Assembly: GCA_030583725.1 (NCBI GenBank)
Contig: CP129472.1
Coordinates: forward strand, 75-64,074
Length of the DNA: 64,000 nucleotides
DNA from: a bacterium
GTDB lineage: Bacteria > Patescibacteriota > Microgenomatia > UBA8517
Reading direction: 5' to 3'
Below, piece by piece: positions 17,098 to 55,172 of the stretch (the stretch's first letter is position 1; every line of letters begins with the position of its first letter). The notes under the pieces were generated by a model. That model did not search any database. It had not been told where the DNA came from and was given only the letters and a program-made list of their open reading frames with translations. Position numbers and translations under genes: made by a program.

Positions 17098-18030
17098 ATG
17101 GATTCTGCCCAAGGTAAAAATAGTGAAATATCAAAAAAAATAGATGAATTTTTAGATTATTTATCTGTTGAAAAAGGATGCTCCCCTCTTACAATTAGAA
17201 ATTACAAACACTATTTAAGTAGACTTCTTGGGTGGTTGATTACAAGTCATAAACATACAGATGTTAAATCTATAAACCAAGATACTGTTCATCACTTCAG
17301 AGCATATTTAGCAAAGCTTGGTTTGGGAAAAAAGACTCAAGGATATCACGCAATCGCACTACGATCGTTTCTTAAATGGCTTCTTCGCAACGACTATCAA
17401 GTAATGGCACCTGATAAGATTGAACTACCTAAAATACCAGATAGACAAGTTAAGTTTTTAAGTGGTGAACAGGTAGATAGATTACTAAATGCTCCTTCAA
17501 TGTCTGATATACAAGGTGTACGGGACAAAGCTATTTTAGAAGTTTTATTTTCTACAGGACTACGTGTATCTGAACTTACAGGTTTAAATATCGAAAAAAT
17601 TGATTTTGAAAGACGTGAGTTTGGTATTACAGGAAAAGGAGGAAGGGCTAGGGTTGTCTTCTTGTCATCTCGTGCAACTGAATATTTAAAAAAATATTTA
17701 AATGAAAGAAAAGATCATTTTAAACCTTTATTTATTAGACACAAGGGAAAGATGGATCCAACTACTCCAGACAATAAAATGCGTCTTACTCCCCGCTCGG
17801 TTGAGAGAATGTTAAAAAAATATGTTAGAAAGGTTAAACTTCCAGTTGAAGCTACTCCACACACAATGAGACACTCGTATGCAACTGATCTGTTGATAGC
17901 AGGAGCTGACATTCGGTCAGTACAAGAAATGTTGGGGCATAAAAATATATCAACTACACAGATTTATACTCATGTTACAAATAAACAACTTCATGACATC
18001 CACGAAACCTTCCATGGGAGGGGGAAGTGA
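17098..18030 (+). CDS. Tyrosine site-specific recombinase (XerC/XerD-like)
   Basis: N-terminal SAM-like core-binding domain (FLDYLSVEKGCSPLTIRNYKHYL). Catalytic domain with R (GLRVSEL), HTMRHSYAT, LGHKNISTTQIYTHV (nucleophile Tyr). Confidence 0.85.
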   Translation: MDSAQGKNSEISKKIDEFLDYLSVEKGCSPLTIRNYKHYLSRLLGWLITSHKHTDVKSINQDTVHHFRAYLAKLGLGKKTQGYHAIALRSFLKWLLRNDYQVMAPDKIELPKIPDRQVKFLSGEQVDRLLNAPSMSDIQGVRDKAILEVLFSTGLRVSELTGLNIEKIDFERREFGITGKGGRARVVFLSSRATEYLKKYLNERKDHFKPLFIRHKGKMDPTTPDNKMRLTPRSVERMLKKYVRKVKLPVEATPHTMRHSYATDLLIAGADIRSVQEMLGHKNISTTQIYTHVTNKQLHDIHETFHGRGK

Positions 18031-40670: not shown

Positions 40671-41177
40671 ATGAAAATCAAACCATTTACATTAGTTGAA
40701 ACAAAACTATTAGCATTTATATTTTTGGTGTTGTTTGTGGTTATTGGGTTTAATATGTCAATTTCTTTAAGGCGCGGTAGGGATGCCACAAGAAAAAATG
40801 ATATTTCAGCAATTCAAAAGGGATTAGATACCTACTATCAAAAGTATCGTATTTATCCCCAATCTACATCTGATGGAAAAATGATTGGATGTTTTACTGA
40901 AGAAGCTGTGACAGACATACTAACTGGATTACCATTAAATGTGGAGGTTTGTAATTGGGGTGAATCTAATTTTGAGGGTATGTCCCCTATGCCTAGGGAT
41001 CCAAGTGATAAAAAAGGTGTAAGTTACAAGTATGTTTCAGACGAGAAAAGCTATGGTTTTTATGTTTCTTTAGAAGGTAAGGATGAACCTGAATATAATT
41101 TAGGAACACAACAATTAGGATTGCAATGTGGCACTAAAGTATGCAATTATGGAAGAGTAGTTGAAAATGAAATATAG
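40671..41177 (+). CDS. Prepilin-like protein (atypical leader MKIKP|FTLVETKLL)
   Basis: N-terminal hydrophobic helix and Glu+5-like arrangement. RGRDATRKNDIS motif shared with neighbours. Confidence 0.55.
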   Translation: MKIKPFTLVETKLLAFIFLVLFVVIGFNMSISLRRGRDATRKNDISAIQKGLDTYYQKYRIYPQSTSDGKMIGCFTEEAVTDILTGLPLNVEVCNWGESNFEGMSPMPRDPSDKKGVSYKYVSDEKSYGFYVSLEGKDEPEYNLGTQQLGLQCGTKVCNYGRVVENEI

Positions 41178-41622
41178 TAAGCAAAACTTGGCCAGTAAAA
41201 CTGGTAAAAAAGGATTTACATTAGTTGAACTTTTAGTAGCAATGGCAATTATTGGAGTTTTGGCTGCAATGGCTGTTGGTAGTTTTAGAACTGCACAATT
41301 AAGGGGTAGGGATACACAGAGAAAGTCTGATCTAAAACAGGTTTCAAATGCTTTAGAACTTTATTATGCTGATTATGGAAGGTATCCTGATAGTTTGACT
41401 TGGGGTGGAGAGTTTACTGATGGCAGAACAATTTACTTTAAGGTTTTACCAACTGACCCATCTGGTGGTGTATACACCTATACTCTAGTTGGTGCTTCTA
41501 CCCAAAAATACCAGCTTTTTGCAAGACTTGAAAATACTGAAGATCAAGACTGTATACAAGACAACTGTGCGCAGAATCCCAATTTTGCAGTTACTAGTGC
41601 TAATACAACAGCAACAGAGTAA
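41161..41622 (+). CDS. Type IV pilin / GspG-like pseudopilin
   Basis: KKG|FTLVELLVAMAIIGVLAA...RGRDTQRKSDLKQVSNALELYYADYGRYPD (GspG-like). Confidence 0.75.
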   Translation: MKMKYSKQNLASKTGKKGFTLVELLVAMAIIGVLAAMAVGSFRTAQLRGRDTQRKSDLKQVSNALELYYADYGRYPDSLTWGGEFTDGRTIYFKVLPTDPSGGVYTYTLVGASTQKYQLFARLENTEDQDCIQDNCAQNPNFAVTSANTTATE

Positions 41623-41668
41623 GCATAGCTTGCCACTAAAGTGGTAATATATAATTAAAGTCAAAGTT

Positions 41669-42121
41669 ATGAACAACAAAACAAAAAAAGGTTTTACCTT
41701 AGTCGAATTACTGGTCGTAGTTTCTTTAATTGGAGTTTTGGCAACTTTAGTTATTGCAAATATGAACTCAGCCAGAGAAAGGGCTAGAGATACTCAAAGA
41801 AAATCAGATTTTAGGAATATCCAAACAGCATTAAGGCTTTATTACAATGATAATGGAGGCTATCCAACCAGTAGTACAGATAATATTGTTGGCTGCGATG
41901 GTAATTGTGTATGGGGAGAGTCTTGGGTGAATGATGACGTGACTTATATGAACATATTGCCTGATGATCCCCTATCAAACCAGATATATAAATATACCTA
42001 TATAGATGATGATGATTATATACTTGAGGCTTGTCTTGAAAATGTCAGTGATGACAAAGGAATTGCAACCACTGACCTGGATTGGTGCCCGACTGGTTGG
42101 AAGTATGAAGTAAAACCATAA
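41669..42121 (+). CDS. Type IV pilin / GspG-like pseudopilin
   Basis: MNNKTKKG|FTLVELLVVVSLIGVLA...RARDTQRKSDFRNIQTALRLYYNDNGGYP. Confidence 0.75.
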   Translation: MNNKTKKGFTLVELLVVVSLIGVLATLVIANMNSARERARDTQRKSDFRNIQTALRLYYNDNGGYPTSSTDNIVGCDGNCVWGESWVNDDVTYMNILPDDPLSNQIYKYTYIDDDDYILEACLENVSDDKGIATTDLDWCPTGWKYEVKP

Positions 42122-42594
42122 TGAAAAAAACATTAACAACCAAAAATAAAATACAACAAATGGGTTTTACATTAGTAGAGATGCTTGTCGTCATCTCTTT
42201 AATAGGAATTTTGGCTGCCTTAGCACTTGTTTCATTTGGGTCATCTCAAAAACAAGCAAGAGATTCACAAAGAAAGTCTGATTTGAAACAATTTCAGACA
42301 ACAATTGAAAATTATGCGAGTCTAAATTCTGGACTTTATCCTGTTTACACAACTACGTTACAAATCGACTCTTCTGATAGTAATTTTTGTACCGATGAAT
42401 TAAATTTAACATCTTGCCCAATAGATCCTAAAAACACTGAGAATTTAGTTTATAAATACGTTTCAAATGCCACAGGAACCAGTTTTGTTCTCTGGACAGG
42501 TCTTGAAAATAAGGAAGTGTTTTGGGTAATTTGTAGTAGTGGTAGAAATGGAGAAAGTGATATTGCACCAAGTTCTAGTACCTGTCCTATCTAA
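42121..42594 (+). CDS. Type IV pilin / GspG-like pseudopilin
   Basis: QQMG|FTLVEMLVVISLIGILAA...QARDSQRKSDLKQFQTTIENY. TAATG overlap with the previous gene. Confidence 0.75.
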   Translation: MKKTLTTKNKIQQMGFTLVEMLVVISLIGILAALALVSFGSSQKQARDSQRKSDLKQFQTTIENYASLNSGLYPVYTTTLQIDSSDSNFCTDELNLTSCPIDPKNTENLVYKYVSNATGTSFVLWTGLENKEVFWVICSSGRNGESDIAPSSSTCPI

Positions 42595-42605
42595 ATTTTT
42601 TAATT

Positions 42606-43061
42606 ATGAATAAAAATGACAATTTTCGTTTGAAATCCAAAGGTTTTACCCTCATTGAGCTGTTGGTTGTTATATCAATTATTGGGATAGTTGTGGCAAT
42701 ATCAATTTTTGGACTATCAGGAGCTCGTGAATCTGCAAGAGACGCAAGGAGAAAGTCAGACCTTGAACTTATTAAATCTGGACTTGAAATATATAGAGCT
42801 GATTGTAATGCATATCCTGCCAATTTAAATACCTCCCCTCTTATTGGTACTGGAACACCTTCAAGTTGTGCTGTTTCAAATACGTACATTGAACTAATAC
42901 CTGAGGACCCAATTCCAGAGTCTAAAACATATAGATATGCTACAACGGCAAGTGGATATGAGCTTTGTGCTTCATTGGAACAGTCAGGATTGACTACAGT
43001 GACCTGTGGTGGCTCTTCAGACTGTGGTACCAGTTGTAATTATAGAGTGACAAATCCATGA
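42606..43061 (+). CDS. Type IV pilin / GspG-like pseudopilin
   Basis: KSKG|FTLIELLVVISIIGIVVA...SARDARRKSDLELIKSGLEIYRAD. Confidence 0.75.
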   Translation: MNKNDNFRLKSKGFTLIELLVVISIIGIVVAISIFGLSGARESARDARRKSDLELIKSGLEIYRADCNAYPANLNTSPLIGTGTPSSCAVSNTYIELIPEDPIPESKTYRYATTASGYELCASLEQSGLTTVTCGGSSDCGTSCNYRVTNP

Positions 43062-43528
43062 TTAAAAAAAACATAGGAAACAGTGGTTACACATTAATTG
43101 AACTTTTGGTTGGAATATCAATAATAGGTATTGTTTTTAGTATTGGTCTTGCAGGTTACAGAGAATTTTCAAGAAGACAGGAGTTGGTGGGGGTTATAAA
43201 AAGGATTGTTGCTGACTTAAGACTTTCCCAACAACTTGCAATTGGAGGTCAAAAACCAGAGGGTGAAGTTTGTAATGTTTTGGATGGCTACAGTTTCTCA
43301 AGAATCAGCCAAACAGAATATAATTTAATTGCCAATTGTTCAAATGCCAATCATATTATTAAGGTTGTTGAGTTACCTAGTAATGTAAGTTTAACCCAAG
43401 GTTCAGTAATGTTTAAAGCTTTGGGACAAGGCACTAATCTTGAGGAAAACTTAACTTTTACGGTTACAAATGTAGTTAGTAGCAGTACTGGTACTGTAAC
43501 AATTGGAGTAGGAGGAAATGTTGAATAA
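43058..43528 (+). CDS. Prepilin-type minor pilin (GspH/PilE-like)
   Basis: GNSG|YTLIELLVGISIIGIVF. ATGA overlap with the previous gene. Confidence 0.65.
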   Translation: MIKKNIGNSGYTLIELLVGISIIGIVFSIGLAGYREFSRRQELVGVIKRIVADLRLSQQLAIGGQKPEGEVCNVLDGYSFSRISQTEYNLIANCSNANHIIKVVELPSNVSLTQGSVMFKALGQGTNLEENLTFTVTNVVSSSTGTVTIGVGGNVE

Positions 43529-43964
43529 TAATCGAGGCCAATCAATGTTTGAAGTTGTGTTGGCTTTATTTATTATAACTATGATTATTGTAGCTGTTGT
43601 TATACTTTCAACTAATTCGATATCAAACTCACTTTTTTCAAAAAATAAAACACTTGCTGGTAGGTATTCACAGGAGGCGGTAGAGTGGCTAAGGTCAGAA
43701 AGAGAAAGTAATTTCAATAATTTTTCAGCATATGCAGATCTTCCAACATATTGTCTAGACAGTCTTAGCTTTTTAAATACTGGTTTGTGTAGTGAAAGCG
43801 AAACAATATCAGATACTGTCTTTGAAAGAACACTTTACTTCACAAAACAAGTGTCATCAGGTAAAACTATAATTGATGCAACTGTGGTCACCACATGGAC
43901 TGATTCCAAAGGTGTGCACTCATCAAGATCAGTTACAAGTTTTAATGACATTCGTGAACGATGA
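43518..43964 (+). CDS. Prepilin-type minor pilin
   Basis: NNNRG|QSMFEVVLALFIITMIIVAV with Glu+5. Confidence 0.55.
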   Translation: MLNNNRGQSMFEVVLALFIITMIIVAVVILSTNSISNSLFSKNKTLAGRYSQEAVEWLRSERESNFNNFSAYADLPTYCLDSLSFLNTGLCSESETISDTVFERTLYFTKQVSSGKTIIDATVVTTWTDSKGVHSSRSVTSFNDIRER

Positions 43965-43991
43965 TGTGATCAATAGAAAAAAATAATAATT

Positions 43992-44486
43992 ATGAAGAAG
44001 AAATTAATCAAGGGTTTAAGTTTAGTTGAAATATTAATAGTAATTTCAATCTTTGCAGTTATTGGCCTACTTTCTACAAGATCTGTGTTTTTAACATTAA
44101 GAGGTGCTAAAAAAAGTGATTCATTAGTTCGTGTTCGTGAGAATATCAATTATTCACTTGCAGTTATGGAAAGACAGATAAGAAGTGCCCAAAGTGTAAC
44201 TTGCCCTAATTTATCACCTACGGTTTTAGATTATGTTTCTATTGAAGGTAGCCAAACCTCATTTTCATGTACTTTGACAGGAAGTGACAGATATATAGCT
44301 TCAGGGTCTGCCAGATTAACATCAAATGACGTTTCTTTATTGTCTTGTAATTTTAGTTGTACACAGGATGACATAAATACACCACCTGTAGTTAGAATAC
44401 TGTTGGAGGCAACTGATTCTCAAATTACATCTGTTGAAGCAGGAACAGTTACTGCACAGACAGAAATAGTTTTGAGGAATTATTAA
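43992..44486 (+). CDS. Prepilin-type minor pilin (PilW/GspJ-like)
   Basis: MKKKLIKG|LSLVEILIVISIFAVIG with Glu+5. Confidence 0.6.
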   Translation: MKKKLIKGLSLVEILIVISIFAVIGLLSTRSVFLTLRGAKKSDSLVRVRENINYSLAVMERQIRSAQSVTCPNLSPTVLDYVSIEGSQTSFSCTLTGSDRYIASGSARLTSNDVSLLSCNFSCTQDDINTPPVVRILLEATDSQITSVEAGTVTAQTEIVLRNY

Positions 44487-45130
44487 GTCTTAAGCATAGC
44501 CAGTTGGTACTTTTTAACCTCATTTGTAATTACTGTTTTTGCTTCTTGCCATGAAAAATTGGGATCAAGTAACTTAATTGACCTTTTGGTTTCTTTACCT
44601 TCAGCATCATCATAATAAGTTAATGCACGTAGTATCAAATACTCATTAAAATTTTTGTACTTTCGATATGCGAAAGTCATCATCTCTTCAAGGCTAAAAT
44701 TATTTAATAAGTAAAAAATATCAATATAGTCCCTTTTTGCTGGTCTATGACTAACTGAGAGTAGTTTCATTGCTGCGATATCTTTTAGGCCTGCGAGATT
44801 TATGCCTATTTCTGTTTTTACCTTATCTATAAGAGGATACTGGTACCAAAAAAAAGAACATTCAACATCTTTTATTATTACAAATACCGTGTCTTTTTCT
44901 ATTAATGTCACTTTAGCGTCTGATCCAAAAACTTTACTTATTTTGTCTACTAGTTTGGCTGAGTCAAAATGTTTTTGAATAAAAAAGTCAAAATCTACTG
45001 ATGTTCTATGGCCAATTAATAAAGCAAGTGATGTCCCCCCTGCTAGATAGAATCCGTCGTTTGATAAAAATTTTAGCTTTGGCAAGACTTCTTGCTGGTT
45101 TTTATTCAAAATTGAAGTAAAAAATTTCAT
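44483..45130 (-). CDS. Nucleotidyltransferase AbiEii/AbiGii-like toxin family protein
   Basis: N-terminal FYLAGGTSLALLIGHRTSVDFDFF pattern typical of the AbiEii minimal nucleotidyltransferase fold. Convergent with the last pilin, with a 4-nt overlap. Confidence 0.55.
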   Translation of the reverse strand: MKFFTSILNKNQQEVLPKLKFLSNDGFYLAGGTSLALLIGHRTSVDFDFFIQKHFDSAKLVDKISKVFGSDAKVTLIEKDTVFVIIKDVECSFFWYQYPLIDKVKTEIGINLAGLKDIAAMKLLSVSHRPAKRDYIDIFYLLNNFSLEEMMTFAYRKYKNFNEYLILRALTYYDDAEGKETKRSIKLLDPNFSWQEAKTVITNEVKKYQLAMLKT

Positions 45131-45155
45131 AGTATTTAATACTGAATTTCATAAG

Positions 45156-45446
45156 TTAAGCCTCGAGGCTTATAATTGCCTTTTCAAATTTATTTTTTGA
45201 TAGGCTAATTTCAAATATATTCAACCAATACTTCAAGACACTACTCATCCAATATCCACGCAGGGGTGAGGCTACTGCATTTTTAATATCTCTCTTTGAA
45301 TAATTTTCTGTTAACCAGCGAAGAGCTTTACCATCCCCTTTATTTAATATCTCTGTAATAATTATCTCTCTGTCATTAACAATATCAAGTTGACTCAGAT
45401 CGTAAGAAGCTAAATATGGTTTTAAGTGTGAAGGTATGTTTGGCAT
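45156..45446 (-). CDS. Small hypothetical protein upstream of AbiEii-like gene (possible cognate partner/antitoxin)
   Basis: 96 aa, same strand, 25-nt gap to the toxin-like gene. No HTH recognised. Confidence 0.4.
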   Translation of the reverse strand: MPNIPSHLKPYLASYDLSQLDIVNDREIIITEILNKGDGKALRWLTENYSKRDIKNAVASPLRGYWMSSVLKYWLNIFEISLSKNKFEKAIISLEA

Positions 45447-45465: not shown

Positions 45466-45506
45466 TTATGGTGCCACCTTAAGCCCATTTGGCCCTTTTG
45501 AATTGG
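45466..45506. repeat. Copy 1 of ~41-46 nt conserved element TTATGGTGCCACYTNNRGYCCATTTGRCYNNTTTNAAYTG
   Basis: Direct comparison with the copies at 47522 and 48049. Confidence 0.7.
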
Positions 45507-45744
45507 GAGCAAAACTATTCAATAATTCATGTTGTGCGTATAGGCGCAATATTTAATTAGTTCCTTGAACTTGAGGTTTTGTAATTGAATATTTTTCTTG
45601 TTTCTTATCTGTTAATTTATTGCCGGCTGGAGTGTTTAGATCTTTTATTGTAATGTTATCTCCTTTTCGCTGTGGAACAGAGATTTTCTCAAGATTTGGA
45701 TCAATAGGATTGTTTTTCTTTTCTATCATATTTGATATTGTATA

Positions 45745-46926
45745 TCACTTTATGAAATTTTGTATAATTGTTGAAAGTGCCACTGCATGAGGAAGATTAG
45801 AAAATGGCTTACTAATTATGAGGTTGTCGAGAATATATGATCTGTTTCTAAGTTCATTTGATCCTCTAAAACATTTATTAAATATTGAGGCGTAAACACT
45901 ATCGAAATCTAGATTAGGTTTTCTGTATATTTCTATTTCAAACAAAACCCTATGAAAGACTTTCAGAAATTCTCCGAAAATAGAATTATATACTTCGGTC
46001 GAAATTACCTTCAGAATATCCAATTCTATCTTTGTGGTTTGTAGTTCGTTAAAATATGAGCCCTTTTCCTCTGGTAAAATTTCATTTTTATAACATCCAA
46101 TACGATGAATTATATGAGATAATTCGTGAATAAGGTCAATTGACTGATGTTTTAAATTTTGATTTTTATCTATCTGCACCTTAAACCTATCAGTTTCTTT
46201 TATATAATTCGACTGTGAGAAGTCGCCAAATTCGATATCAACTTTTGATTTATACATACTAATAACAACGTTATTGCTTGACATATAATGTGTTACATCA
46301 CCTAAATTACCGAATGGAAAGTTTTTTAGATTACATAAAGAGCAATGATTTCCAAATTCGGAAAAAAAGTCTTTCTCTAGATTATTGTGTGTTGTATGAC
46401 TGTTACAAAATTCAATAACTTTATTATTATTTCTAATGAAATCCTTATAGACTGATTTAGGAATCTTATATAAATCCAGATAATAATCGACAAACACTTC
46501 GTATCCTTTTGCAAAGACTAACTCTTTCCTTTGCGCTATCAAGTTGGAAAATGATTCTTCAATTCTTTTGTACGGCAACCTAAATTTTTCCCAAACACCA
46601 CCTCTTTTTTCAGGTTGAGAACCCCAAATCTCATTTTGTAATTTAGTTCGAAGCTCGGGGTGGTAAGTAATAAAAAAATCCACAGATGCCTGGTAACTTG
46701 ATGGATTTATATTTTTAAATTCAACTTCTGCTCTATCGCGAACCTTTACATCGTATATCCAATTCCTAATATATAATTCTTCAGACATTAATTTTGGAGC
46801 TGCTAACTTTCTATATTTAATTCTTGCCTGTTTTGTAGATTCACTCACAAGGATATTCATGTCTATATTATATAAGGTAAATCGGAGAAAAGGTAATACG
46901 TGTGTATTTAAAGTGCTGGTGCACAC
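45745..46926 (-). CDS. Hypothetical protein with HExxH zinc-metallopeptidase motif
   Basis: LIHELSHIIHRIG. No other family assignment. N-terminal start uncertain. Confidence 0.45.
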   Translation of the reverse strand: MCTSTLNTHVLPFLRFTLYNIDMNILVSESTKQARIKYRKLAAPKLMSEELYIRNWIYDVKVRDRAEVEFKNINPSSYQASVDFFITYHPELRTKLQNEIWGSQPEKRGGVWEKFRLPYKRIEESFSNLIAQRKELVFAKGYEVFVDYYLDLYKIPKSVYKDFIRNNNKVIEFCNSHTTHNNLEKDFFSEFGNHCSLCNLKNFPFGNLGDVTHYMSSNNVVISMYKSKVDIEFGDFSQSNYIKETDRFKVQIDKNQNLKHQSIDLIHELSHIIHRIGCYKNEILPEEKGSYFNELQTTKIELDILKVISTEVYNSIFGEFLKVFHRVLFEIEIYRKPNLDFDSVYASIFNKCFRGSNELRNRSYILDNLIISKPFSNLPHAVALSTIIQNFIK

Positions 46927-46962
46927 CTTTTCTCCTTCCAGAAATCTATTTAATTGTTAGAA

Positions 46963-47214
46963 CTACCAACCGCCACCACCAAAATCTGGTGGAGGTACTC
47001 TGTCAGCATCTTGATTGCATCCACCACTACCGCCGCGACTGTAGTCACTTTCAATTCCTTGGTTGGAATTGATAGCGCCACCAGGGGTGTTGTGCAGATT
47101 TCCTTGCAGGTCTGGATACATGATCCGACCTCCTACGGGAATACCGCCTTGTGGAATTTGCTGGTCAGATTGATTGGCATCATTCGGATCGGGTAAACCA
47201 TTTGGTCCACTCAT
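46963..47214 (-). CDS. Small Gly/Pro/Asn-rich protein ending GGGGW
   Basis: 83-aa low-complexity ORF (GGIPVGGRIMYPDLQGNLHNTPGGAINSNQG...SRGGSGGCNQD...PPPDFGGGGW). No signal peptide. Could be a spurious ORF. Confidence 0.3.
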   Translation of the reverse strand: MSGPNGLPDPNDANQSDQQIPQGGIPVGGRIMYPDLQGNLHNTPGGAINSNQGIESDYSRGGSGGCNQDADRVPPPDFGGGGW

Positions 47215-47521
47215 GTGCCATTCTCCTTTTTGCGAAAAGTAAAATCCGCATACGTGCGGTCTGCGATGACTTAAATTTTTGGTGTTGTTACCAATTTTTA
47301 ATCAGTTCCAGTTTGACAACTCGGTTTGGATTTTTAAACCACGCACTATGTGGAATCCAGTGGTCGAAAATGGAATACAGATCTACTGAAGGTTTCAAAA
47401 CCTCAACTTAAGGATCTTCCTCGTGATGTTGTACATCACACCTAATTTAAAGGTGCAAGCAGAACTATATCAGAAATGATCAAATTGTCAATGAAGCTTT
47501 GATAGTTTAGCGTGGCTGAGT

Positions 47522-47567
47522 TTATGGTGCCACTTTAAGTCCATTTGACTGGTTTAAACTGAAGTTG
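47522..47567. repeat. Copy 2 of conserved ~45-nt element
   Basis: 14 nt downstream of the stop of minus-strand gene 47584-48015. Confidence 0.7.
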
Positions 47568-47583
47568 TTAACGCAAACTCAAC

Positions 47584-48015
47584 TTAAGCGCCAAAATCCA
47601 TTATAGGTAATCCAACATATTTTTGAATTGATTGAATATTATGTATTACTTTAATATTTTGCTTATCGTGAAAATCAAAATCTTTTTCGACTACTTTTTT
47701 AACTTTTTTAACATCTGTCTTTACAGATGTCATGTCTTTTTGTAATTTCTCTACACCATCTTTAAGTCCTGACACGTCAGTTTTAAGTCCTGACACGTCA
47801 GTTTTAAGTCCTGACACGTCAGTTTTAAGTCCTGACACGTCAGTTTTAAGTCCTGACACGTCAGTTTTAAGTTCTGACACGTCAGTTTTAAGTCCTGACA
47901 CGTCAGTTTTAAGTCCTGCTGTATCAGTTTTTAATATCTTTATATCAGATATAATTGGCTTCAGCTTAGTATCGAGTACTTCACTAATAGAATTTAGATC
48001 TTGTTTAGTTAACAT
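47584..48015 (-). CDS. Tandem heptad-repeat protein (LKTDVSG x about 9), coiled-coil-like
   Basis: Encoded by 8 tandem copies of a 21-bp unit. Flanking sequence is non-repetitive. Confidence 0.55.
   Translation of the reverse strand: MLTKQDLNSISEVLDTKLKPIISDIKILKTDTAGLKTDVSGLKTDVSELKTDVSGLKTDVSGLKTDVSGLKTDVSGLKTDVSGLKDGVEKLQKDMTSVKTDVKKVKKVVEKDFDFHDKQNIKVIHNIQSIQKYVGLPIMDFGA
47762..47929. repeat. Tandem repeat, 21-bp unit TTAAGTCCTGACACGTCAGTT x8 (6 perfect, 2 variant)
   Basis: Read directly from sequence. In-frame within CDS 47584-48015. Confidence 0.9.
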
Positions 48016-48048
48016 ATTTTAATAATACACTGTGTACAAAAGCTGTCA

Positions 48049-48093
48049 ATTATGGTGCCACTTCTGCCCATTTGGCCCTTTTGAATTGAAGTT
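48049..48093. repeat. Copy 3 of conserved ~45-nt element (forms the last 12 codons and stop of CDS 48050-49675)
   Basis: Reverse complement encodes ...LQFKRAKWAEVAP*. Confidence 0.7.
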
Positions 48094-49675
48094 GATTTGG
48101 GAAAAGCATCATTTGATCAGGTGCAAATTCAACAAGTTCTGCAGGAGTTGAGTTGTCTAGTAGTTCTCTTTCTAGCAATACACTACCATATGAGGCCAAG
48201 GATCCTCTTAAGTGCAGTTGTGTATCCCCTGCCCCTGTTGATATATTATTATCAGCCATATAAATTCCTTCAATCGCAGGACTACCACTAACTGCAGAAT
48301 CAATTGTTATATTTCCATTTACAAAGCTTGCAAAAAAACCAACTCCATCTGTTAGGTTTATATTACCGTTGATATTAAAGTTGCCTTCTTCAACAAACAA
48401 GACTACTTTTCTGGTAGTTATATCAATATCCCCCACAGTATCTAAGTTGCCAACAACCTTGTACCACTCATATCCATTTGAATCAACAACTACTCCCCCA
48501 CTTGGTAAGTCATTAATGTCATTAAAAACAATATCGTTAGGTATTAAATTTTCAAAATAACTATAATTAAATATTCTACTTAATGTTGAAGTAGTATTAG
48601 CATTCCAAATATTAACAGATATCCTTTCAGGAGTGTCTAAGTATAAATTAAGAGAAGTACCATAGACTGCAACACCTGAAAAACCACCTAAGCCATCACT
48701 TAAGAAATAATTACCAGCGGGAACTAAAGAACTTAATACCCCATTTGTTGTAACATCACCATCCATTACTTGCCACCATGGCTCGTTTGCAACAGGTGTT
48801 AAAAAACTATAATTTGTAGAAGAAGAACAACTTACACTTTGATAATTAACAATTTTTACAAAGTAAATGGTATCAGGAAGTAGGGGTGAAACAAAAGGAT
48901 AGAAGTCAGTACTACTTGCCAAATTTGCATTAACAGTACAACTAGTTCCTGTACCACAATTATTAGTTACATCGCTTTGCGTAGTTGAAACATATAAATT
49001 TTGAGACGCTCCATTAGTACCAGTTGTCCAAGTTAATAAATCATCACTAAAACTTACAGCAGAAGGTGCTGTGGTATTACAAGTAGAAAGACACTCATAG
49101 GTGTTGGCTGTGCGTCCGCTACATGTTGTAGTAGCAGGCCAACAATCCCATCTAATACAACTAGTTCTACCCGTATTTGGGTTGGTCCAATACTGTTCAC
49201 ATTCTCCACAACCTGCGGGTGTTGTTGTACATCCACACTCTGATCCTTCACTTTGTGCCGATCCTAGTTGAAACCATCCATTACAATGCCAGATCGAACC
49301 CTTACTTACACACTGTGAACCAATCAGATTATTTGTCTTTACTGTCCCCGAAGGACAGTTTACGACCCATGTGGGGTTGCATTGCGACTCACAACTTCTA
49401 CAACTCCCATTATTCGTCGTCCCGCACGGGCACGCGCTAGGGGGTGGAGTTGCACTACCACCACAGTTATCACCCCAAAGTGTGCAGGATGGTGATGAAC
49501 CACCAGAACAGTTGTCTGCTCCGCCACATGTACAATCACCACTTGCTTCTGAGCCACTTGAGGTTACACATATACAATCATCCAAACATTGAGCATTTAC
49601 ATCTTTTGTGGAAAAACCAAAAAGAAAAAAAATTGCAAAAATTAGAAATAATATAATTTTAAATATTTTTGACAT
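48050..49675 (-). CDS. Large secreted Cys-rich hypothetical protein
   Basis: Signal peptide (MSKIFKIILFLIFAIFFLFGFS). About 40 Cys in the N-terminal 200 aa. No domain recognised. Confidence 0.55.
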   Translation of the reverse strand: MSKIFKIILFLIFAIFFLFGFSTKDVNAQCLDDCICVTSSGSEASGDCTCGGADNCSGGSSPSCTLWGDNCGGSATPPPSACPCGTTNNGSCRSCESQCNPTWVVNCPSGTVKTNNLIGSQCVSKGSIWHCNGWFQLGSAQSEGSECGCTTTPAGCGECEQYWTNPNTGRTSCIRWDCWPATTTCSGRTANTYECLSTCNTTAPSAVSFSDDLLTWTTGTNGASQNLYVSTTQSDVTNNCGTGTSCTVNANLASSTDFYPFVSPLLPDTIYFVKIVNYQSVSCSSSTNYSFLTPVANEPWWQVMDGDVTTNGVLSSLVPAGNYFLSDGLGGFSGVAVYGTSLNLYLDTPERISVNIWNANTTSTLSRIFNYSYFENLIPNDIVFNDINDLPSGGVVVDSNGYEWYKVVGNLDTVGDIDITTRKVVLFVEEGNFNINGNINLTDGVGFFASFVNGNITIDSAVSGSPAIEGIYMADNNISTGAGDTQLHLRGSLASYGSVLLERELLDNSTPAELVEFAPDQMMLFPNQLQFKRAKWAEVAP

Positions 49676-50147
49676 ATATTGGTAATTTGAAAAAATTATT
49701 AAACTGATTTTGTTGTGTTACTTCTTCCTTTCCTTGATAGAATTGAATTACATTTAAAGTATATTCTTTAATTTGATGTTCTGCATCACTAGATCTTAAA
49801 ACATTTTCTGATACGTAAATATAAATCAAAACCTCGTTTAAACTTAATATGTCAATTGTTGATCCAAAGTCTATTTTTTGATTGTCATCTATATATTGAT
49901 AACTTGGTCTTACTTTGTCTGTATAGACTATCGCAATGGACTTGGGTTTAATTCCTTTAATTAAAAATTTGTTTAATTTTAAAGAAAAATTTAAGTAAAT
50001 ATCAAGAATTATAGGGTTCTTGTTTTCAATCCTCAAAGACCCAATTCTTGAGTTGAAAAAAACTGGCGTGGAAGTTAATTTTAAATAAAAAACAACTGAA
50101 GCCAAAAACAAAACAAACAAACTTGAAAAAATAATTAACTTTTTCAT
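49659..50147 (-). CDS. Hypothetical membrane-anchored protein
   Basis: N-terminal TM helix. 162 aa. Overlaps the downstream gene by 17 nt. Confidence 0.45.
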   Translation of the reverse strand: MKKLIIFSSLFVLFLASVVFYLKLTSTPVFFNSRIGSLRIENKNPIILDIYLNFSLKLNKFLIKGIKPKSIAIVYTDKVRPSYQYIDDNQKIDFGSTIDILSLNEVLIYIYVSENVLRSSDAEHQIKEYTLNVIQFYQGKEEVTQQNQFNNFFKLPIYVKNI

Positions 50148-50175
50148 TCTAATTAAAGACTACACTATTTTGAAG

Positions 50176-51891
50176 TTATTGTGAAGGGTCTTTGAAATTT
50201 ATTCCCTCGATTTCTAAAAAGTTCCGTGATTGACGGGCATATGATCTTAAATTTGATTTACCAGCGACCATCATTCCCATAGAATCAAATATTCTGTATA
50301 CAACTTGAGCTTCGTAGAAGTCAGTTATCATTTTTCTATCAGAATCATTTAATGTGTGGCTATCATTATTGTATCCCCAACGTTCTGCTGCTGTTGATAT
50401 AGAGTAGATGACTATCTGTCCATTTGGTTTGGTCCATAATAAATAACCAAAGGTACTATCGACAATTGTATTTTTAGATTTTTGATCATTAATTAAATCA
50501 TTTTTAATTTCATCTGGTAGTGAATTATATTCATCCGCAGTCATTATCGTTCTAATTTCTATTGGTAGATTAAAATTTGCAGGGTGCTCCAGTGATTTCA
50601 TCTTGGAAGTCGCATACGGATCAGATCTAACGCCATAGGCAACTTTAAAGTTAAATATTCCATCATTTTTAACCATTACATGCTCAAATGCTTGTTCTGG
50701 GGTGGCAAAACCCAATTGATGTGCCAGTGAGTTCCACATATTGGCGTCATTTTTGCCTTCTGGCATTCCTACAATTCCTTTTGAGGTTCGGTCAGTAACT
50801 GAAAAAATACCAGTAGAACTCCATTTTGGATCAATGTAAGTATAGAAACTATGGTCATTACCTTCACCGTCTTTGACAATATGTTCCCCCACTCTTGTCA
50901 TCCTCATTTGTCCATCAATTTCCATTTCCATAGCAATAACTTGTTTAGTTTCATCACTCTTAATGCCATATATAACTTTAGTATCAACCCCATTTACTTG
51001 TTTTACACCATATTCAAACGTTTCAAATTGATTTTTATATTTATCTGTCATTTCAGCTGGAAATACAACGCCCCCAACAGGCACCTCAACTTTAACAAGT
51101 GAGGCCATTTTTACATTGAATATCTCTTGTGGTGACACAAGTAAACCTCCTGGTATGAAAAGTATATCTCGTGCCTCAATTTCTTCATTGGTCATCTGTG
51201 AAAGTTCAACTTCTGTCAACTCCGTGTTAAAAATCATAATAGATTTATCCAAATCCGCACCCGTAGCTGGATCCTGAGTTATACCAAGTCCTACTCTTCC
51301 TTCGGCATCAATAATCCTGTTTAAAACAATATAGATAACTTCACCCTGGTCTCCGCCAAAGATCATTGCTGTTCTACTTTTTTCTTCAACTTCAGAAGTG
51401 GCATTAAAGAATACATAAGTTGTTTCTTTTCCAGTAATGTCAACTGTTTTAACTCCAGATGCGGAGTATTCAATTGTGCTTGGATCTTCAAAAAGGTCTT
51501 TTATTCGTTGGTCCTCACCAAAGGCTCTAAACGGACCAGGTAGTTTGGAAATTATTTCGGATTCTTCAACAAACTCATAGGACATTGTAGCGTTGACTTC
51601 ACTAGTGGAAGTTGGAATTACAAACGGTTTTTCTGTTGGGGCAATTTCAGTCGTATTTTGATTATTTGATGATGTTACTTCAGGATTTATACCGTTTTTT
51701 ATACATGCCAATGATGTCCCAGCTATTGCTGCAGTGAGACTACCCCTGATAAACAATTTTGTTGTGTCTGTTAATCTATCGCTCATATTTAATTTATCAA
51801 CTTGTTTTTCTATTATTCCCTCAACACCAATATTCCATAAATCTGATTGACTAATTCTTCTCCCTAACCGTATTATTCTATCCTTATTCAT
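50176..51891 (-). CDS. Large hypothetical protein (571 aa), probably exported
   Basis: Weak signal-like segment (SLTAAIAGTSLACIKNG, lipobox-like). No domain recognised. Confidence 0.5.
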   Translation of the reverse strand: MNKDRIIRLGRRISQSDLWNIGVEGIIEKQVDKLNMSDRLTDTTKLFIRGSLTAAIAGTSLACIKNGINPEVTSSNNQNTTEIAPTEKPFVIPTSTSEVNATMSYEFVEESEIISKLPGPFRAFGEDQRIKDLFEDPSTIEYSASGVKTVDITGKETTYVFFNATSEVEEKSRTAMIFGGDQGEVIYIVLNRIIDAEGRVGLGITQDPATGADLDKSIMIFNTELTEVELSQMTNEEIEARDILFIPGGLLVSPQEIFNVKMASLVKVEVPVGGVVFPAEMTDKYKNQFETFEYGVKQVNGVDTKVIYGIKSDETKQVIAMEMEIDGQMRMTRVGEHIVKDGEGNDHSFYTYIDPKWSSTGIFSVTDRTSKGIVGMPEGKNDANMWNSLAHQLGFATPEQAFEHVMVKNDGIFNFKVAYGVRSDPYATSKMKSLEHPANFNLPIEIRTIMTADEYNSLPDEIKNDLINDQKSKNTIVDSTFGYLLWTKPNGQIVIYSISTAAERWGYNNDSHTLNDSDRKMITDFYEAQVVYRIFDSMGMMVAGKSNLRSYARQSRNFLEIEGINFKDPSQ

Positions 51892-52075: not shown

Positions 52076-52897
52076 ATGACAAGAAAGAACCAAAAAGGTC
52101 AGGCTGTTTTAGTTGTTCTTTTGTCATTGTCTGTAGTTTTGATTATAGTTTTGTTCATCCTCTCTCGTTCAATTACTGATATTTCCCTTTCAACTAAAGA
52201 AGAAGACTCACTTCGTGCTTTTTCTGCAGCTGAAGCTGGTGTTGAGAGGGCTTTGGTTATTGGTAATAGTAGTGGAAGTCTAGATGATGCTGAGTTTAGT
52301 GCTTTGGTTACTCAATTTGCCAGTGGGGCTGATCAAGTTACCTACCCACTTGCCTTAAAGTCTGGTGAAAATGCCGTTTTCTGGTTTAAAAGAGCTGGAG
52401 AGGTAACTCAGTTTAATGGAAGTAATATTAGATTCTGCTGGGGAAATGCTGGTACTAACCCTGCAGACAGTGATACTCCTGCCTTGGAAGTTACTTTTTA
52501 CTACACTACCCTACCTGATGATATGACAACCCTACAAATTGAAAGGGCTGTCTATGACCCCAATGTTTCAAGGGTTACTGCAAACCGTTTTGATAATGCA
52601 CAAATTTCAAGTTGTACAATAGGACAAGATAGTTTTGCTTTTCAAGCAACTATTGACACTCCTACTGGTACCTTAGAATATGCAACTGCAAAACTTTTGT
52701 ACAACACCACAAATGCACATAAAGTGGGTATAAATGTGGCTTCAACTGGCTCAATTCTTCCTTCTCAGGGTGAAAAAGTTGAGTCTGCAGGTTCATATGG
52801 GGATGCAAACAGAAGTATAGAAGTATATCAATTGCATCCTGAAACCCCACCCATTTTTGCTAATGCAATCTTTAGCGCAAATGGTATAGTTAAGTAA
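52076..52897 (+). CDS. PilX-like type IV pilus assembly protein
   Basis: N-terminal QKGQAVLVVLLSLSVVLIIVLFILS followed by AFSAAEAGVERAL matches the PilX N-terminal pattern. Directly upstream of pilMNO. Confidence 0.55.
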   Translation: MTRKNQKGQAVLVVLLSLSVVLIIVLFILSRSITDISLSTKEEDSLRAFSAAEAGVERALVIGNSSGSLDDAEFSALVTQFASGADQVTYPLALKSGENAVFWFKRAGEVTQFNGSNIRFCWGNAGTNPADSDTPALEVTFYYTTLPDDMTTLQIERAVYDPNVSRVTANRFDNAQISSCTIGQDSFAFQATIDTPTGTLEYATAKLLYNTTNAHKVGINVASTGSILPSQGEKVESAGSYGDANRSIEVYQLHPETPPIFANAIFSANGIVK

Positions 52898-52913
52898 TTA
52901 GGAAAAACTGCCC

Positions 52914-53921
52914 ATGGTCGGAATAGATATAGGAACAAAAAGTATTAAAATTATTGAACTTGCCCAAAGTGGCAATTCTTGGGTGTTAAAAGCTTCAGGG
53001 GCAGTTGGTTATGCTGGTGTTTCTCCTGATAAGGCACAAACAGATGAAGAATTAAATGCAGTTTCAGAAGTTTTAAAAAAAATTATTAACCAGATAGGTG
53101 TTAACACAAAGGACGTTAACTTGTCTTTGCCTGAATCCTTAGTTTTTACCCGTGTCATTAAGTTTCCATTACTTTCAGATGAAGAAGTATCAGCTGCAGT
53201 TAAGTGGGAAGCTGAACAATATATACCTATACCCACCGCAGAAGCTGTCATCCAATATACAGTTTTAAGTAGAAATGAAACCACTTCCCAAACATCAGTC
53301 CTTCTAGTTGCAGCCCCAAAGGCAATTGTTGAAAAATATGTCAAAGTGGCAAGACTTGCAGGCTTAACACCTGTTGCTGCAGAAACTGAACTAACTGCCA
53401 TGGCAAGGTCACTCTCACCTGATAAAGGTGTATCTCTTCTTTTAGACTTAGGTTCATCTGCGACTGATATGTCAATTGTCAAAGATACAAAAGTAGTTTT
53501 TACAAGATCCATACCTGTTGCTGGTGAAGCTTTTACAAGAGCGGTCTCACAAGGTTTGGGTATTAATGCCCAACAGGCTGAGGAGTACAAAAAAACATAT
53601 GGACTATCAACAGATCAATTAGAAGGAAAGGTAAGGCAAGCACTTGAACCTATTTTTAAAATGGTAATTGATGAAATCAAAAAAGCAATTCATTTCTATC
53701 AGTCTGAGGAAAAAGGAGATACTCCAACTTCAGTAATTATCACAGGGGGTGCTTCAACAATGCCTGATATTGTTACCTATTTAACAGAAAGCTTAGGAAT
53801 TGAAACAGTTGTAGGTAGTCCGTTTGCAAAAATAAATCTTGACTCTGAAACCTTGAAAGGTTTAGCTCCATATGCTTCAATCTATGCTGCAGCTGTGGGG
53901 CTAGCTATGCGCAATGAATAA
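52914..53921 (+). CDS. pilM: Type IV pilus assembly protein PilM (actin-like ATPase fold)
   Basis: MVGIDIGTKSIKIIELAQ, LLLDLGSSATDMSIV, IITGGAST. Confidence 0.85.
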   Translation: MVGIDIGTKSIKIIELAQSGNSWVLKASGAVGYAGVSPDKAQTDEELNAVSEVLKKIINQIGVNTKDVNLSLPESLVFTRVIKFPLLSDEEVSAAVKWEAEQYIPIPTAEAVIQYTVLSRNETTSQTSVLLVAAPKAIVEKYVKVARLAGLTPVAAETELTAMARSLSPDKGVSLLLDLGSSATDMSIVKDTKVVFTRSIPVAGEAFTRAVSQGLGINAQQAEEYKKTYGLSTDQLEGKVRQALEPIFKMVIDEIKKAIHFYQSEEKGDTPTSVIITGGASTMPDIVTYLTESLGIETVVGSPFAKINLDSETLKGLAPYASIYAAAVGLAMRNE

Positions 53922-54489
53922 TACTATGGAAAATCAAAGCTTGCCAGTTCGTGGTAAAAATATAAACTTAATTCCAACAGAAATGGCAGTACCTGCACGT
54001 GCTGTCAAAGTGGCTAAAGTAATATCTAAATTTTCAGTAGTTGGTTCGATTGTACTTTTGCTAGTAATCCTCTCTTTAGGTTCATATTATATTTATTTGC
54101 GCTTAGAAAATGAGAAAGTTACTTCAAGCGTTAACACTTTAAAGCAAACCATTTCAGACTTGAGCCAAAACGAACAAAAATTAATTTTGGCAAAAGATAG
54201 ATTATCAAAAATAACTGTGGTCAGAAAAGCAGAATCTGCAAATTCTGAGGTTAAAAGATATCAAAATTTTTTAAGTCAAGTTGTTGGCACTGTGGGTACT
54301 CAAATTACAGAGGCAACCCTTACCACCAAAGGAACTGAGATTACTATAACAGCAGATAGTTCTCAAAATTTGTCAGGGATACTTAAAACAATATCAAATG
54401 TGCTGGAGTACGAAAGAATAGTTGTATCATCCTTAGCTTATAATCCTGGGTCAGGTTTTGTAGCGAACATCCTATTCGAAAATAAGTAA
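53914..54489 (+). CDS. pilN: PilN-like type IV pilus assembly protein
   Basis: Short cytoplasmic N-terminus, single TM (VVGSIVLLLVILSLGSYYIYL), periplasmic coiled coil. Overlaps pilM by 8 nt. Confidence 0.6.
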   Translation: MNNTMENQSLPVRGKNINLIPTEMAVPARAVKVAKVISKFSVVGSIVLLLVILSLGSYYIYLRLENEKVTSSVNTLKQTISDLSQNEQKLILAKDRLSKITVVRKAESANSEVKRYQNFLSQVVGTVGTQITEATLTTKGTEITITADSSQNLSGILKTISNVLEYERIVVSSLAYNPGSGFVANILFENK

Positions 54490-54494
54490 ACAAT

Positions 54495-55172
54495 ATGAAC
54501 ACAAATACTAAAAACGAAATCAACTTTCTTTTAAAGCCTGTAATTATTTTTTCTTCAGTTTTAATTCTAATTATTTTTTCTTTTGTTATTGGTTTAAGAA
54601 ATATATCCAATTTGCAAAGCAATATAACAGCAAACAAGACAACAGAAAACACATTGTCTAAAAAAGTATTGGCTTTAGAAACTGTTAGTAGGACCCTACC
54701 AGGAGATGTTACTTTTTTGGATGTGGTTTTACCAAGTAAAGGTTCAGTTTTATATGCTCTAAGTCAGATCAGAACACAATCTTTAAATAATAATTTAAAC
54801 GTTTCAAACCTAAAAACAGGAAATGTAATACCTGAAAGTTCTGGAGTCATGAAGTCTTCAGTTAGCTTCGAGGTAGAAGGTCAAGAGTCTGACGTTTTTA
54901 CTTTTTTAAGTTCTTTGGGTACAGTACTCCCTTTAATTAATATTGATAAAGTTAGTTTTAATAGCTCTCTTGGATTATCAAGGGCTAATATATCAGTTAA
55001 TGTCTATTCAGCAGAACTTCCTAAAACAATACCATCTTTAACAGGTGTTGTTAGTGAGTTAACAAGTCAAGACATCACTCTTTTAAATGAGTTGGCAGGG
55101 TATACTTTGCCACAATTTATAGAACCAACAATTGAAGAAGCTCCATCACAGAAAACTGATCCATTTAACTAA
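54495..55172 (+). CDS. pilO: PilO-like type IV pilus assembly protein
   Basis: Single TM (VIIFSSVLILIIFSFVIG) then periplasmic domain. Position after pilM/pilN. Confidence 0.55.
   Translation: MNTNTKNEINFLLKPVIIFSSVLILIIFSFVIGLRNISNLQSNITANKTTENTLSKKVLALETVSRTLPGDVTFLDVVLPSKGSVLYALSQIRTQSLNNNLNVSNLKTGNVIPESSGVMKSSVSFEVEGQESDVFTFLSSLGTVLPLINIDKVSFNSSLGLSRANISVNVYSAELPKTIPSLTGVVSELTSQDITLLNELAGYTLPQFIEPTIEEAPSQKTDPFN

Follow-up and report, generated by a model that had tools for sequence, protein, structure and literature searches.

The window analysed here, a stretch of 64,000 nucleotides (nt) of contig CP129472.1 (positions 75 to 64,074; assembly GCA_030583725.1) from a Woesebacteria-type metagenome-assembled genome of the Patescibacteriota (Microgenomatia; UBA8517), contains three direct copies of an element of about 45 nt at or just beyond the 3' ends of consecutive minus-strand genes. 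Copy 3 belongs to a gene for a secreted protein of 541 amino acids (aa), whose product is identical to QY322_00300 and which is situated within a type IV pilus locus: PilM is encoded at 52914-53921, and a convergent prepilin cluster is found at 41-44.5 kb. From this gene (hereafter the platform gene) towards the prepilin genes, copy 3 is followed by cassette 1, copy 2, cassette 2, copy 1 and a DUF6922/AbiEii gene pair (Table 1). We asked what the three copies are and how they came to lie between these genes.

Table 1. Array features in the window and direct repeats at homologous loci. Repeats were obtained by pairwise alignment of each orphan to the gene tail of its own locus; their spans are given relative to the stop codon.
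Feature	Position or span	Strand	Description and basis
541-aa secreted protein gene (QY322_00300), insertion platform	48050..49675	-	ORF; 32 homologues with common C-terminal 250 aa and tail
Copy 3, functional tail	48050..48093	-	Last 13 codons (LQFKRAKWAEVAP) and stop; ORF, homologue tails
Promoter-like site, start of cassette 1	48022..48049	-	TTGACA-16-TATTAT, 11/12, abuts the stop of copy 3; consensus match only
Cassette 1 cargo	47584..48015	-	143-aa coiled-coil protein with LKTDVSG repeats; absent from L002
Copy 2, orphan tail	47522..47592	-	Core 47522-47567; GAA->TAA, +1 nt, ~24-nt internal deletion
Start of cassette 2	47215..47491	-	Promoter-like site 47464-47491, ~250-nt non-coding leader, terminator-like hairpin 47246-47259
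Cassette 2 cargo	46963..47214	-	83-aa Gly-rich small protein, C-terminus ...PPPDFGGGGW; homologous ORFs precede the HExxH gene in L002 and L054
Cassette 2 cargo	45745..46926	-	HExxH-motif protein; ORF of 393 aa, annotated as 371 aa from 46860 (QY322_00285)
Cassette 2 cargo	45553..45729	-	58-aa ORF; conserved after the HExxH gene in L054
Copy 1, orphan tail	45466..45558	-	Core 45466-45506; GAA->TAA, +1 nt; native right flank attached
Native right flank	44483..45446	-	DUF6922 antitoxin-like gene 45156-45446 and AbiEii toxin gene 44483-45130; Pfam
Convergent prepilin-type genes	41161..44486	+	N-terminal ..FTLIELLV..; far border of the variable region; translations
L017 repeat	-119..0		119/119 nt; copies 6.4 kb apart
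L018 repeat	-106..0		103/106 nt; copies 4.1 kb apart
L029 repeat	-103..-3		102/103 nt; copies 4.5 kb apart
L006 repeat	-94..+3		88/94 nt; copies 4.1 kb apart
L024 repeat	-25..+89		110/115 nt
L003 repeat	-15..+11		26/26 nt
L014 and L015 repeats	-21..0		22-24 nt
L026 relic	-157..0		

The initial annotation had reported these three copies and had assigned to one of them the terminal codons and stop of the 541-aa gene, and both claims were confirmed. A search of the whole window with the 12-mer TTATGGTGCCAC gave exact matches at 45466, 47522 and 48050 only; when one mismatch was allowed, there were four matches where shuffles predict 0.17, and the one thereby added, at 10511, falls within an unrelated open reading frame (ORF). 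A degenerate 40-nt consensus recovered copies 1 and 2, with 0 matches expected by chance, and a repeat search grouped the three copies as one direct family (D2) with an ungapped identity of 73-80%. Over the last 36 nt, with a 1-nt indel allowed, copy 1 agrees with copy 3 at 33/36 positions and copy 2 at 27/36. Copy 3 lies in frame and provides the closing codons (13, plus the stop) of ORF 48050-49675(-), which ends in ...LQFKRAKWAEVAP.

Copy 2 begins ~16 nt beyond the stop of the 143-aa repeat-protein ORF and copy 1 lies 46 nt beyond the stop of the 58-aa ORF. On the minus strand both read ...KW(T/A), a stop and then (A/G)GTGGCACCATAA; with respect to copy 3 they carry GAA->TAA plus a 1-nt insertion (..TGG RCT TAA R GTGGCACCATAA). 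Since in-frame stops are found immediately upstream of each, copies 1 and 2 are outside any gene. A weak, significant similarity to the platform gene extends 5' of the 45-nt core to about -90 to -124 nt, with internal deletions, its alignment score being attained by 4/500 and 5/500 shuffles for the two orphans; the relics are therefore longer than was first recognised.

The 541-aa protein begins with a signal peptide and a Cys-rich N-terminal part, continues with an FN3-like middle and closes with a C-terminal domain that is conserved and beta-rich. It has no sequence match in Pfam, NCBIfam or PDB, and a Foldseek search returned only an FN3 match, to the middle domain. In an AlphaFold2 (AF2) model the predicted local distance difference test score (pLDDT) is 88-97 over residues 370-530, and the strands of the tail are placed inside the confidently predicted beta-rich C-terminal domain. 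All homologues except one, which is truncated, end in ...PAE.FEFAPDQ..LFP..L.F+R.KW.EVAP or a near variant, and W536, E538, A540 and P541 are invariant in an alignment of 27 sequences. Among 44 gene tails from 48 Woesebacteria/Microgenomates loci (designated here by L numbers), codon entropy is 1.58 at position 3 and 0.91 at positions 1+2, and the V, A and P of the tail are each encoded by 3-4 codons. This free variation at wobble positions shows that the tail is conserved at the protein level. The element is therefore the 3' coding tail (...FAPDQ..LFP..L.F+R.KW.EVAP and stop) of the 541-aa secreted protein.

This reading differs from that of the initial annotation, which had argued for a cis element rather than a protein motif (an attC-like site, a terminator or a regulatory site) and had pointed to a conserved near-palindrome. 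A functional DNA or RNA element under nucleotide-level selection would be in keeping with the last 12 nt being identical in the three copies of the window, and with short relics elsewhere that retain their final ~21 nt better than the sequence upstream. However, the palindrome GTGGCACC occurs in only 3/44 gene tails, the GGTGCCACC palindrome being particular to this genome, wobble sites differ among genomes, and orphans decay via frameshifts, deletions and nonsense changes. Folding had been proposed as a check; modelled as DNA, the element showed no secondary structure above shuffles: for the three copies on both strands and the repeats of L017 and L029, z ranged from -1.6 to +0.6. No terminator-like site (hairpin plus T-run) overlaps any copy, Rfam gave no match, and no integron integrase (IntI) was found near the window array, where the flanking ORFs are PilM, pilins, toxin-antitoxin (TA) genes and ORFs without a family match. 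Every copy recovered is a family tail or a relic of one, so that the element is nearly, if not entirely, confined to this window and to homologous coding tails. A cis element is thus largely refuted, and we regard it as very improbable.

Other interpretations of the copies were considered and rejected. A C-terminal sorting or interaction signal carried by several proteins is at odds with copy 3 being the only one in frame, the orphans here and at 13 other loci being preceded by in-frame stops. Against a diversity-generating retroelement, the copies differ by indels and at non-A sites, and ORFs in or near the window array have no reverse-transcriptase match. Silent cassettes of the pilS kind, serving C-terminal variation, were set aside by reasoning, since the orphans comprise only those residues that vary least, and since they decay.

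What held of the initial annotation was the proposal that the copies are gene-cassette boundaries and that recombination is the relevant process: the copies delimit cassettes, and relatives present empty sites, filled sites and rearranged cassettes, with the genes between copies differing from one related genome to another. L008 is an empty site, with DUF6922 and AbiEii within ~20 nt of the gene tail, and its tail and flank align to window copy 1 and its flank; the DUF6922/AbiEii pair, which directly follows the tail in L008, is also present in L010 and L002. L049 is likewise empty, the gene stop lying 8 nt from the pilin cluster, and this convergent cluster directly adjoins the gene or an orphan in L049, L003 and L029. 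In L002 the gene tail is directly followed by a ~270-nt non-coding leader that aligns to the sequence after window copy 2; copy 2 therefore marks the former end of the gene, prior to the addition of the 143-aa cassette and of copy 3. L002 further contains, in this order, the Gly-rich ORF, the HExxH gene, orphan a, a HEPN/MNT pair, orphan b, a Nudix/glycosyltransferase/deacetylase block, orphan c and DUF6922, and orphan c with DUF6922 aligns with window copy 1 and its flank. The HExxH segment of the window is 75% identical to L002:5191-6858 at the nucleotide level over 1.7 kb. Comparison of the window with L002 and L008 thus shows that the cassettes differ among relatives and that the breakpoints fall at tail relics. 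Finally, L015 and L014 are ~92% identical, and L015 carries an additional 1.46 kb exactly after the stop of their common orphan, beginning with a [109+71 aa] module that in L024 and L030 immediately follows the gene tail.

By this comparison, the ancestral layout is gene tail, DUF6922/AbiEii and convergent pilins, with copy 1 at the ancestral tail position, copy 2 at the position of the tail before cassette 1 arrived, and cassette 1 as the apparent newest insertion in this genome. In the order that we infer, the unit comprising promoter, leader, Gly-rich peptide, HExxH protein and 58-aa ORF would have entered first, the old tail staying behind as copy 1 with its native flank; entry of the promoter and 143-aa coiled-coil gene would then have left copy 2. 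With each insertion a tail was either brought in or duplicated, so that the platform gene remained intact, and an intact tail would be needed because the last ~30 residues are near-invariant and are modelled within the fold.

The same arrangement recurs elsewhere. Both strands of all loci (339 kb of upstream and 359 kb of downstream DNA) were searched with a protein hidden Markov model (HMM) of the tail and with a nucleotide one, and 16 further orphan tails were recovered in 13 of ~45 loci (~30% of the sampled Woesebacteria loci): three in L002, two in L027 and one each in L003, L006, L013, L014, L015, L017, L018, L024, L026, L029 and L030. All 16 are downstream of the gene and on the same strand, and none is part of an ORF. 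The arrays hold 1-4 cassettes of 0.5 to 8 kb, each closed by a tail relic. Repeats between orphan and gene tail (Table 1) range from 15 to 157 nt and always include the final codons, and the 5' ends of the long ones lie 0-9 codons before the conserved AE.FE(F/Y) block (PAE.FEFAPD). An exact-pattern scan of JGI metagenomes for variants of the window in other strains gave a single match, by chance, in a GC-rich amidohydrolase gene.

One could also imagine that the 541-aa gene once had tandem paralogues, of which deletion has spared only the orphans, and in L041 two full-length paralogues do stand in tandem, their tails separated by 2.2 kb. Against this, orphans are always 3' pieces, intact unrelated genes fill the intervals, tblastn detected no other fragment of the gene in the window, young repeats stop abruptly ~100 nt from the stop codon, and the empty-site relatives indicate insertion, not loss. 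Remnants of paralogues are therefore disfavoured and seem to us hardly credible. The comparisons demonstrate serial insertion in which the displaced tail is kept and then decays, with examined cassettes that lack recombinase genes, and they establish the same 3' end as a recurrent insertion hotspot in Woesebacteria/Microgenomates. We conclude, with a probability of about 0.8, that each orphan is a displaced tail and records one in a series of insertions at a recurrent hotspot, the 3' end of the 541-aa gene.

We scanned with Pfam the 20 cargo proteins lying between repeats in L006, L017, L018 and L029, and found no recombinase domain in them, nor in the window cassettes. Regular-expression and phmmer searches of all ORFs of the 928 kb of loci detected no serine recombinase, and the tyrosine recombinases that they did detect are all Xer-type and lie kilobases from the arrays; a Ccr-like large serine recombinase was not found in these loci either, by regular expression and by phmmer with a single approximate seed sequence. 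The sole tyrosine recombinase of the window, at 17098-18030(+), is Xer-type, with XerC, XerD and XerA scores about equal, and lies 30 kb from the array. In L015 a second, divergent tyrosine recombinase (L015:16048-17016) stands beside the Xer gene, in a segment apparently absent from the close relative L014. A dif/Xer site of the kind used by integrative mobile elements exploiting Xer (IMEX) or present in pdif modules (28 bp, two inverted 11-bp arms, 6-bp spacer) was rejected, as only the coding side of the copies is conserved, with no TTATG-type second arm; the sequence 3' of the stop codon differs in every copy.

These searches bear on the possibility that the last ~15-20 nt of the tail form an attB-like core for a site-specific recombinase encoded elsewhere, by which non-autonomous cassettes would be mobilised in trans, as pseudo-staphylococcal cassette chromosome (psiSCC) elements are by Ccr or integron cassettes by IntI. 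The terminal codons are common to all repeats and a core, TGG NNN GAR GTN GCN CCN TAA, can be written with 13-14 invariant positions; the insertion that distinguishes L015 from L014 lies exactly at the stop codon, without duplication; repeats of merely 15-26 nt occur in L003, L014 and L015; cassette modules recur at other positions and in other orders; and the architecture is like that of staphylococcal cassette chromosome (SCC) composite islands, including ccr-less psiSCC (PMC4723332). Yet no serine or non-Xer tyrosine recombinase lies in the cassettes or within +-10 kb at ~50 loci, repeat length and 5' boundary vary between 15 and 157 nt, orphans are genome-specific at wobble sites, another insert is flanked by a 270-nt duplication that is not of the tail, and the tail has neither an inverted repeat nor a dif-like second arm. 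We hold mobilisation in trans to be unlikely, if worth keeping in mind.

Alternatively, the orphans could be attachment-site (att) relics of integrase-bearing islands or prophages that entered the 3' end of the gene and from which deletion then removed the integrase and the majority of genes, a course of tandem accretion and decay like that known at tRNA genes. The cargo is typical of islands (TA pairs, nucleotidyltransferase/HEPN, AbiE, Nudix, glycosyltransferases), decay of orphans is seen, and L002, L027 and the window have several relics per array. But the repeats of the youngest cassettes are still identical at 119/119, 102/103 and 103/106 nt, and integrase and phage genes are already absent from these cassettes; intact two-gene modules sit in cassettes of just 0.5-0.7 kb; and a family-alignment scan of IMG/VR (2.9 million viral contigs) gave no confirmed relative of the tail. 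This origin strikes us as rather improbable.

The most likely route, to which we would give roughly an even chance, is homology-anchored insertion; the probability left over by this route and by a recombinase acting in trans goes to the decay of conventional integrase-bearing islands and to other routes. Incoming DNA of close relatives would pair with the conserved tail, either in a Campbell-type single crossover of a circle or through homology-facilitated illegitimate recombination after uptake. Pairing would leave a direct duplication of the paired segment, and the orphans would then decay and be partly homogenised by gene conversion. The variable lengths and 5' boundaries of the repeats speak for this route, as do a 3' boundary at the stop codon, where homology between alleles ends, and the clustering of the 5' ends of the long repeats at the beginning of the conserved PAE.FEFAPD block. 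It is further favoured because orphans match the tail of their own genome (19.3/21 nt, against 15.9/21 for other genomes), because the ending GTGGCACCATAA is unique to the window (0/43 elsewhere), and because wobble positions co-vary (L002a vs L003o; L014 vs L015). A last argument is the duplication of the leader in L002, where leader copies at 1214-1483 and 5188-5433 (224/271 identical) enclose 3.7 kb with an MNT/HEPN pair and four other ORFs; target duplications of such length are thus not peculiar to the tail.

Several observations weigh against this account. Copies 1 and 2 have in common the GAA->TAA change and the adjacent 1-nt insertion, which we can attribute only to conversion between orphans or to coincidence. 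The order of divergence breaks the expectation that older copies are more diverged, since it is the distal copy 1, and not the proximal copy 2, that resembles copy 3 more, so that a divergent donor tail or gene conversion is needed. The exact breakpoint at the stop codon in L015 relative to L014, without duplication, resembles site-specific more than homologous recombination, and so do the very short repeats (15-26 nt) of L003, L014 and L015. The recombinase scan covered the loci, and an enzyme acting in trans may be encoded outside them. When a donor of the L017 cargo was sought, the adenylate kinase (ADK)-GTP cyclohydrolase II gene had its best homologue at only 53% identity, and for no young cassette did we observe a donor, an excised circle or an empty-site read, population reads being outside the data. 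Most loci are contigs of metagenome-assembled genomes (MAGs), and some rearrangements may be assembly errors; the pattern nonetheless recurs in independent studies and in complete genomes.

A broader proposal, which we put forward tentatively, is that the tail and other conserved segments such as the leader may serve as portable homology for integrase-free cassette capture in Patescibacteria. Units of promoter, genes and tail relic would be exchanged among Woesebacteria via uptake and RecA-type single-crossover or homology-facilitated illegitimate recombination, and integron-like arrays could thus form in a competence-pilus locus without a dedicated recombinase.

The cargo of the arrays includes toxin-antitoxin pairs, nucleotidyltransferase/HEPN, Nudix and glycosyltransferase genes, genes resembling those for ribosomally synthesized and post-translationally modified peptides (RiPPs) or nonribosomal peptide synthetases (NRPSs), and isoprenoid genes. 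L006 carries YcaO, a nitroreductase, a histidine phosphatase and a kinase; L029 a C39 peptidase, an amidinotransferase-like protein and an AMP-binding enzyme; L017 adenylate-kinase-like proteins, DegT, GTP cyclohydrolase II and an NTPase; and L018 isoprenoid enzymes. Short inserts consist of a 62-aa ORF with a 138-aa ORF containing a DSGA motif (L014, L015 and L026), of 109-aa and 75-aa ORFs (L024 and L030), or of a nucleotidyltransferase-like pair (L013). At L029:10620-10660 the gene stop overlaps an ATG (CCATGA), the possible start of the first cargo gene (the C39-type peptidase); if this ATG is used, the overlap would suggest translational coupling of the cargo to the platform gene. In the window, the 143-aa ORF contains ~9 near-perfect tandem 21-nt units (7-aa LKTDVSG) at 47761-47928, and small coiled-coil ORFs similar to it are present in the arrays of L010, L015 and L026.

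The three genes of cassette 2 form a module that is also found at L002:5448-6894, L054:1785-3328, L051 and L052: a Gly-rich protein of ~80 aa (..PPPDFGGGGW), an HExxH protein of 320-400 aa without family and a protein of ~58 aa (NNPIDPN.EK..VPQR), in the window at 45553-47214(-). Its conservation shows the 58-aa ORF to be a real gene. In other contigs the module adjoins type III restriction-modification genes, and it may be peptide-modification or defence-associated. Its leader occurs upstream of the Gly-rich ORF (window 47215-47491(-), L002:1214-1483, L002:5188-5433 and L054:~1530-1790) and contains a promoter-like site, the strongly conserved blocks GCACCTTnAAA..GGTGTG, GGAAGATCC, ATCAAAAATTGG and AAGTCATCACAGACCGCACGTAAGCGGATTT and a terminator-like hairpin before the ribosome-binding site. 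A search of Rfam with the leader gave no match. In an RNAalifold analysis of the four leader sequences, 12 pairs show compensatory changes. The leader is a candidate for a novel riboswitch or attenuator.

As to the platform gene itself, some members of its family (P0018, P0021 and P0029) have Hint/intein-like domains (PF07591, PF14623, PF01079) in their variable N-terminal part, and others have TSP1 or Big_2 repeats; across the family, an adhesin-like N-terminus that varies is joined to a C-terminal domain that does not. A complete pilus locus, which encodes PilB/C, prepilin peptidase and pilins, surrounds the L049 homologue. Upstream of the platform gene, the ORFs of 162 aa and 571 aa (49659-51891, minus strand) have no Pfam or NCBIfam match, and neither do three ORFs around PilM (52076-55172, plus strand). 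As a 571/573-aa gene adjoins the platform gene both in the window and in L049, these are probably uncharacterised pilus-associated proteins. Broken tails were also encountered. The homologue at L009:7112-7837 is truncated ~65 codons before its end, the missing tail being on L044:3632-3774 of the same MAG, fused behind an unrelated ORF, and that at L025:10001-10771 is truncated 27 codons before its end, with no orphan within 10 kb. Both could stem from insertions that disrupted the gene at this hotspot, or else from breaks in the assembly.

Patescibacteria have tiny genomes with few recognisable mobile elements and are presumed to rely on DNA uptake, and little is understood of the ways in which they gain accessory genes. 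The hotspot is a concrete, testable locus for gene gain in this group, with precisely bounded, small, recombinase-less cassettes, and orphan W.EVAP tails followed by a stop provide a simple signature of recently acquired DNA in MAGs. For annotation, it follows that short 'conserved elements' after unrelated genes can be scars and not regulators.

Among known systems, SCC and psiSCC composite islands at the 3' end of rlmH (orfX) in Staphylococcus are partitioned by 15-bp terminal-codon repeats, and some of their segments lack ccr (PMC4723332). As there, insertion is into the terminal codons of a conserved gene that is left intact (in the window and 13 other loci), and terminal-codon direct repeats divide a downstream region whose contents differ strongly among relatives. 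Here, in contrast, the target is a surface-protein gene of a Patescibacteria type IV pilus locus, the repeats are variable (15-157 nt) while SCC has a fixed 15-bp integration site sequence (ISS), the orphans follow the wobble sites of the resident gene, and no Ccr-like serine recombinase was found in ~0.9 Mb of loci with the single approximate seed. Integrons (attI/attC/IntI) share a fixed platform, a unidirectional array of small cassettes without a recombinase of their own and a repeat at each cassette end. However, attC sites are folded imperfect palindromes (PMC2727003), whereas the repeats here are unfolded and derived from coding sequence, IntI was not found, and the cassettes have their own promoter-like sites and often several genes. 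The microcin H47 island of E. coli is also small and without a site-specific recombinase, is flanked by imperfect direct repeats and depends for its mobility on these repeats and on host functions (PMC5426353). It is a single island in one species, unlike the recurrent multi-cassette hotspot at a gene 3' end described here. Islands and prophages at the 3' ends of tRNA, tmRNA or protein genes resemble our locus in having the displaced 3' end as distal direct repeat, serial relics and accessory or defence cargo, but at the junctions examined here there is no integrase even where repeats are perfect, and the cassettes are small.

Homology-facilitated illegitimate recombination and Campbell-type integration during natural transformation are established in Acinetobacter and Streptococcus. 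The likeness to our arrays is that a single anchor suffices and that a single crossover duplicates the anchor as direct repeats. To our knowledge neither has been shown in Patescibacteria, and here they are deduced from repeat anatomy alone. A literature search on integrons and islands in Patescibacteria returned nothing specific, and the locus is not described in a study of genomic islands of the group (PMC12455944). The architecture is of a known kind, a 3'-end integration hotspot comparable to SCC and tRNA islands; it departs from these in its long and variable repeats, in that the defining recombinase was not found in the loci, and in a target and a host that are new.

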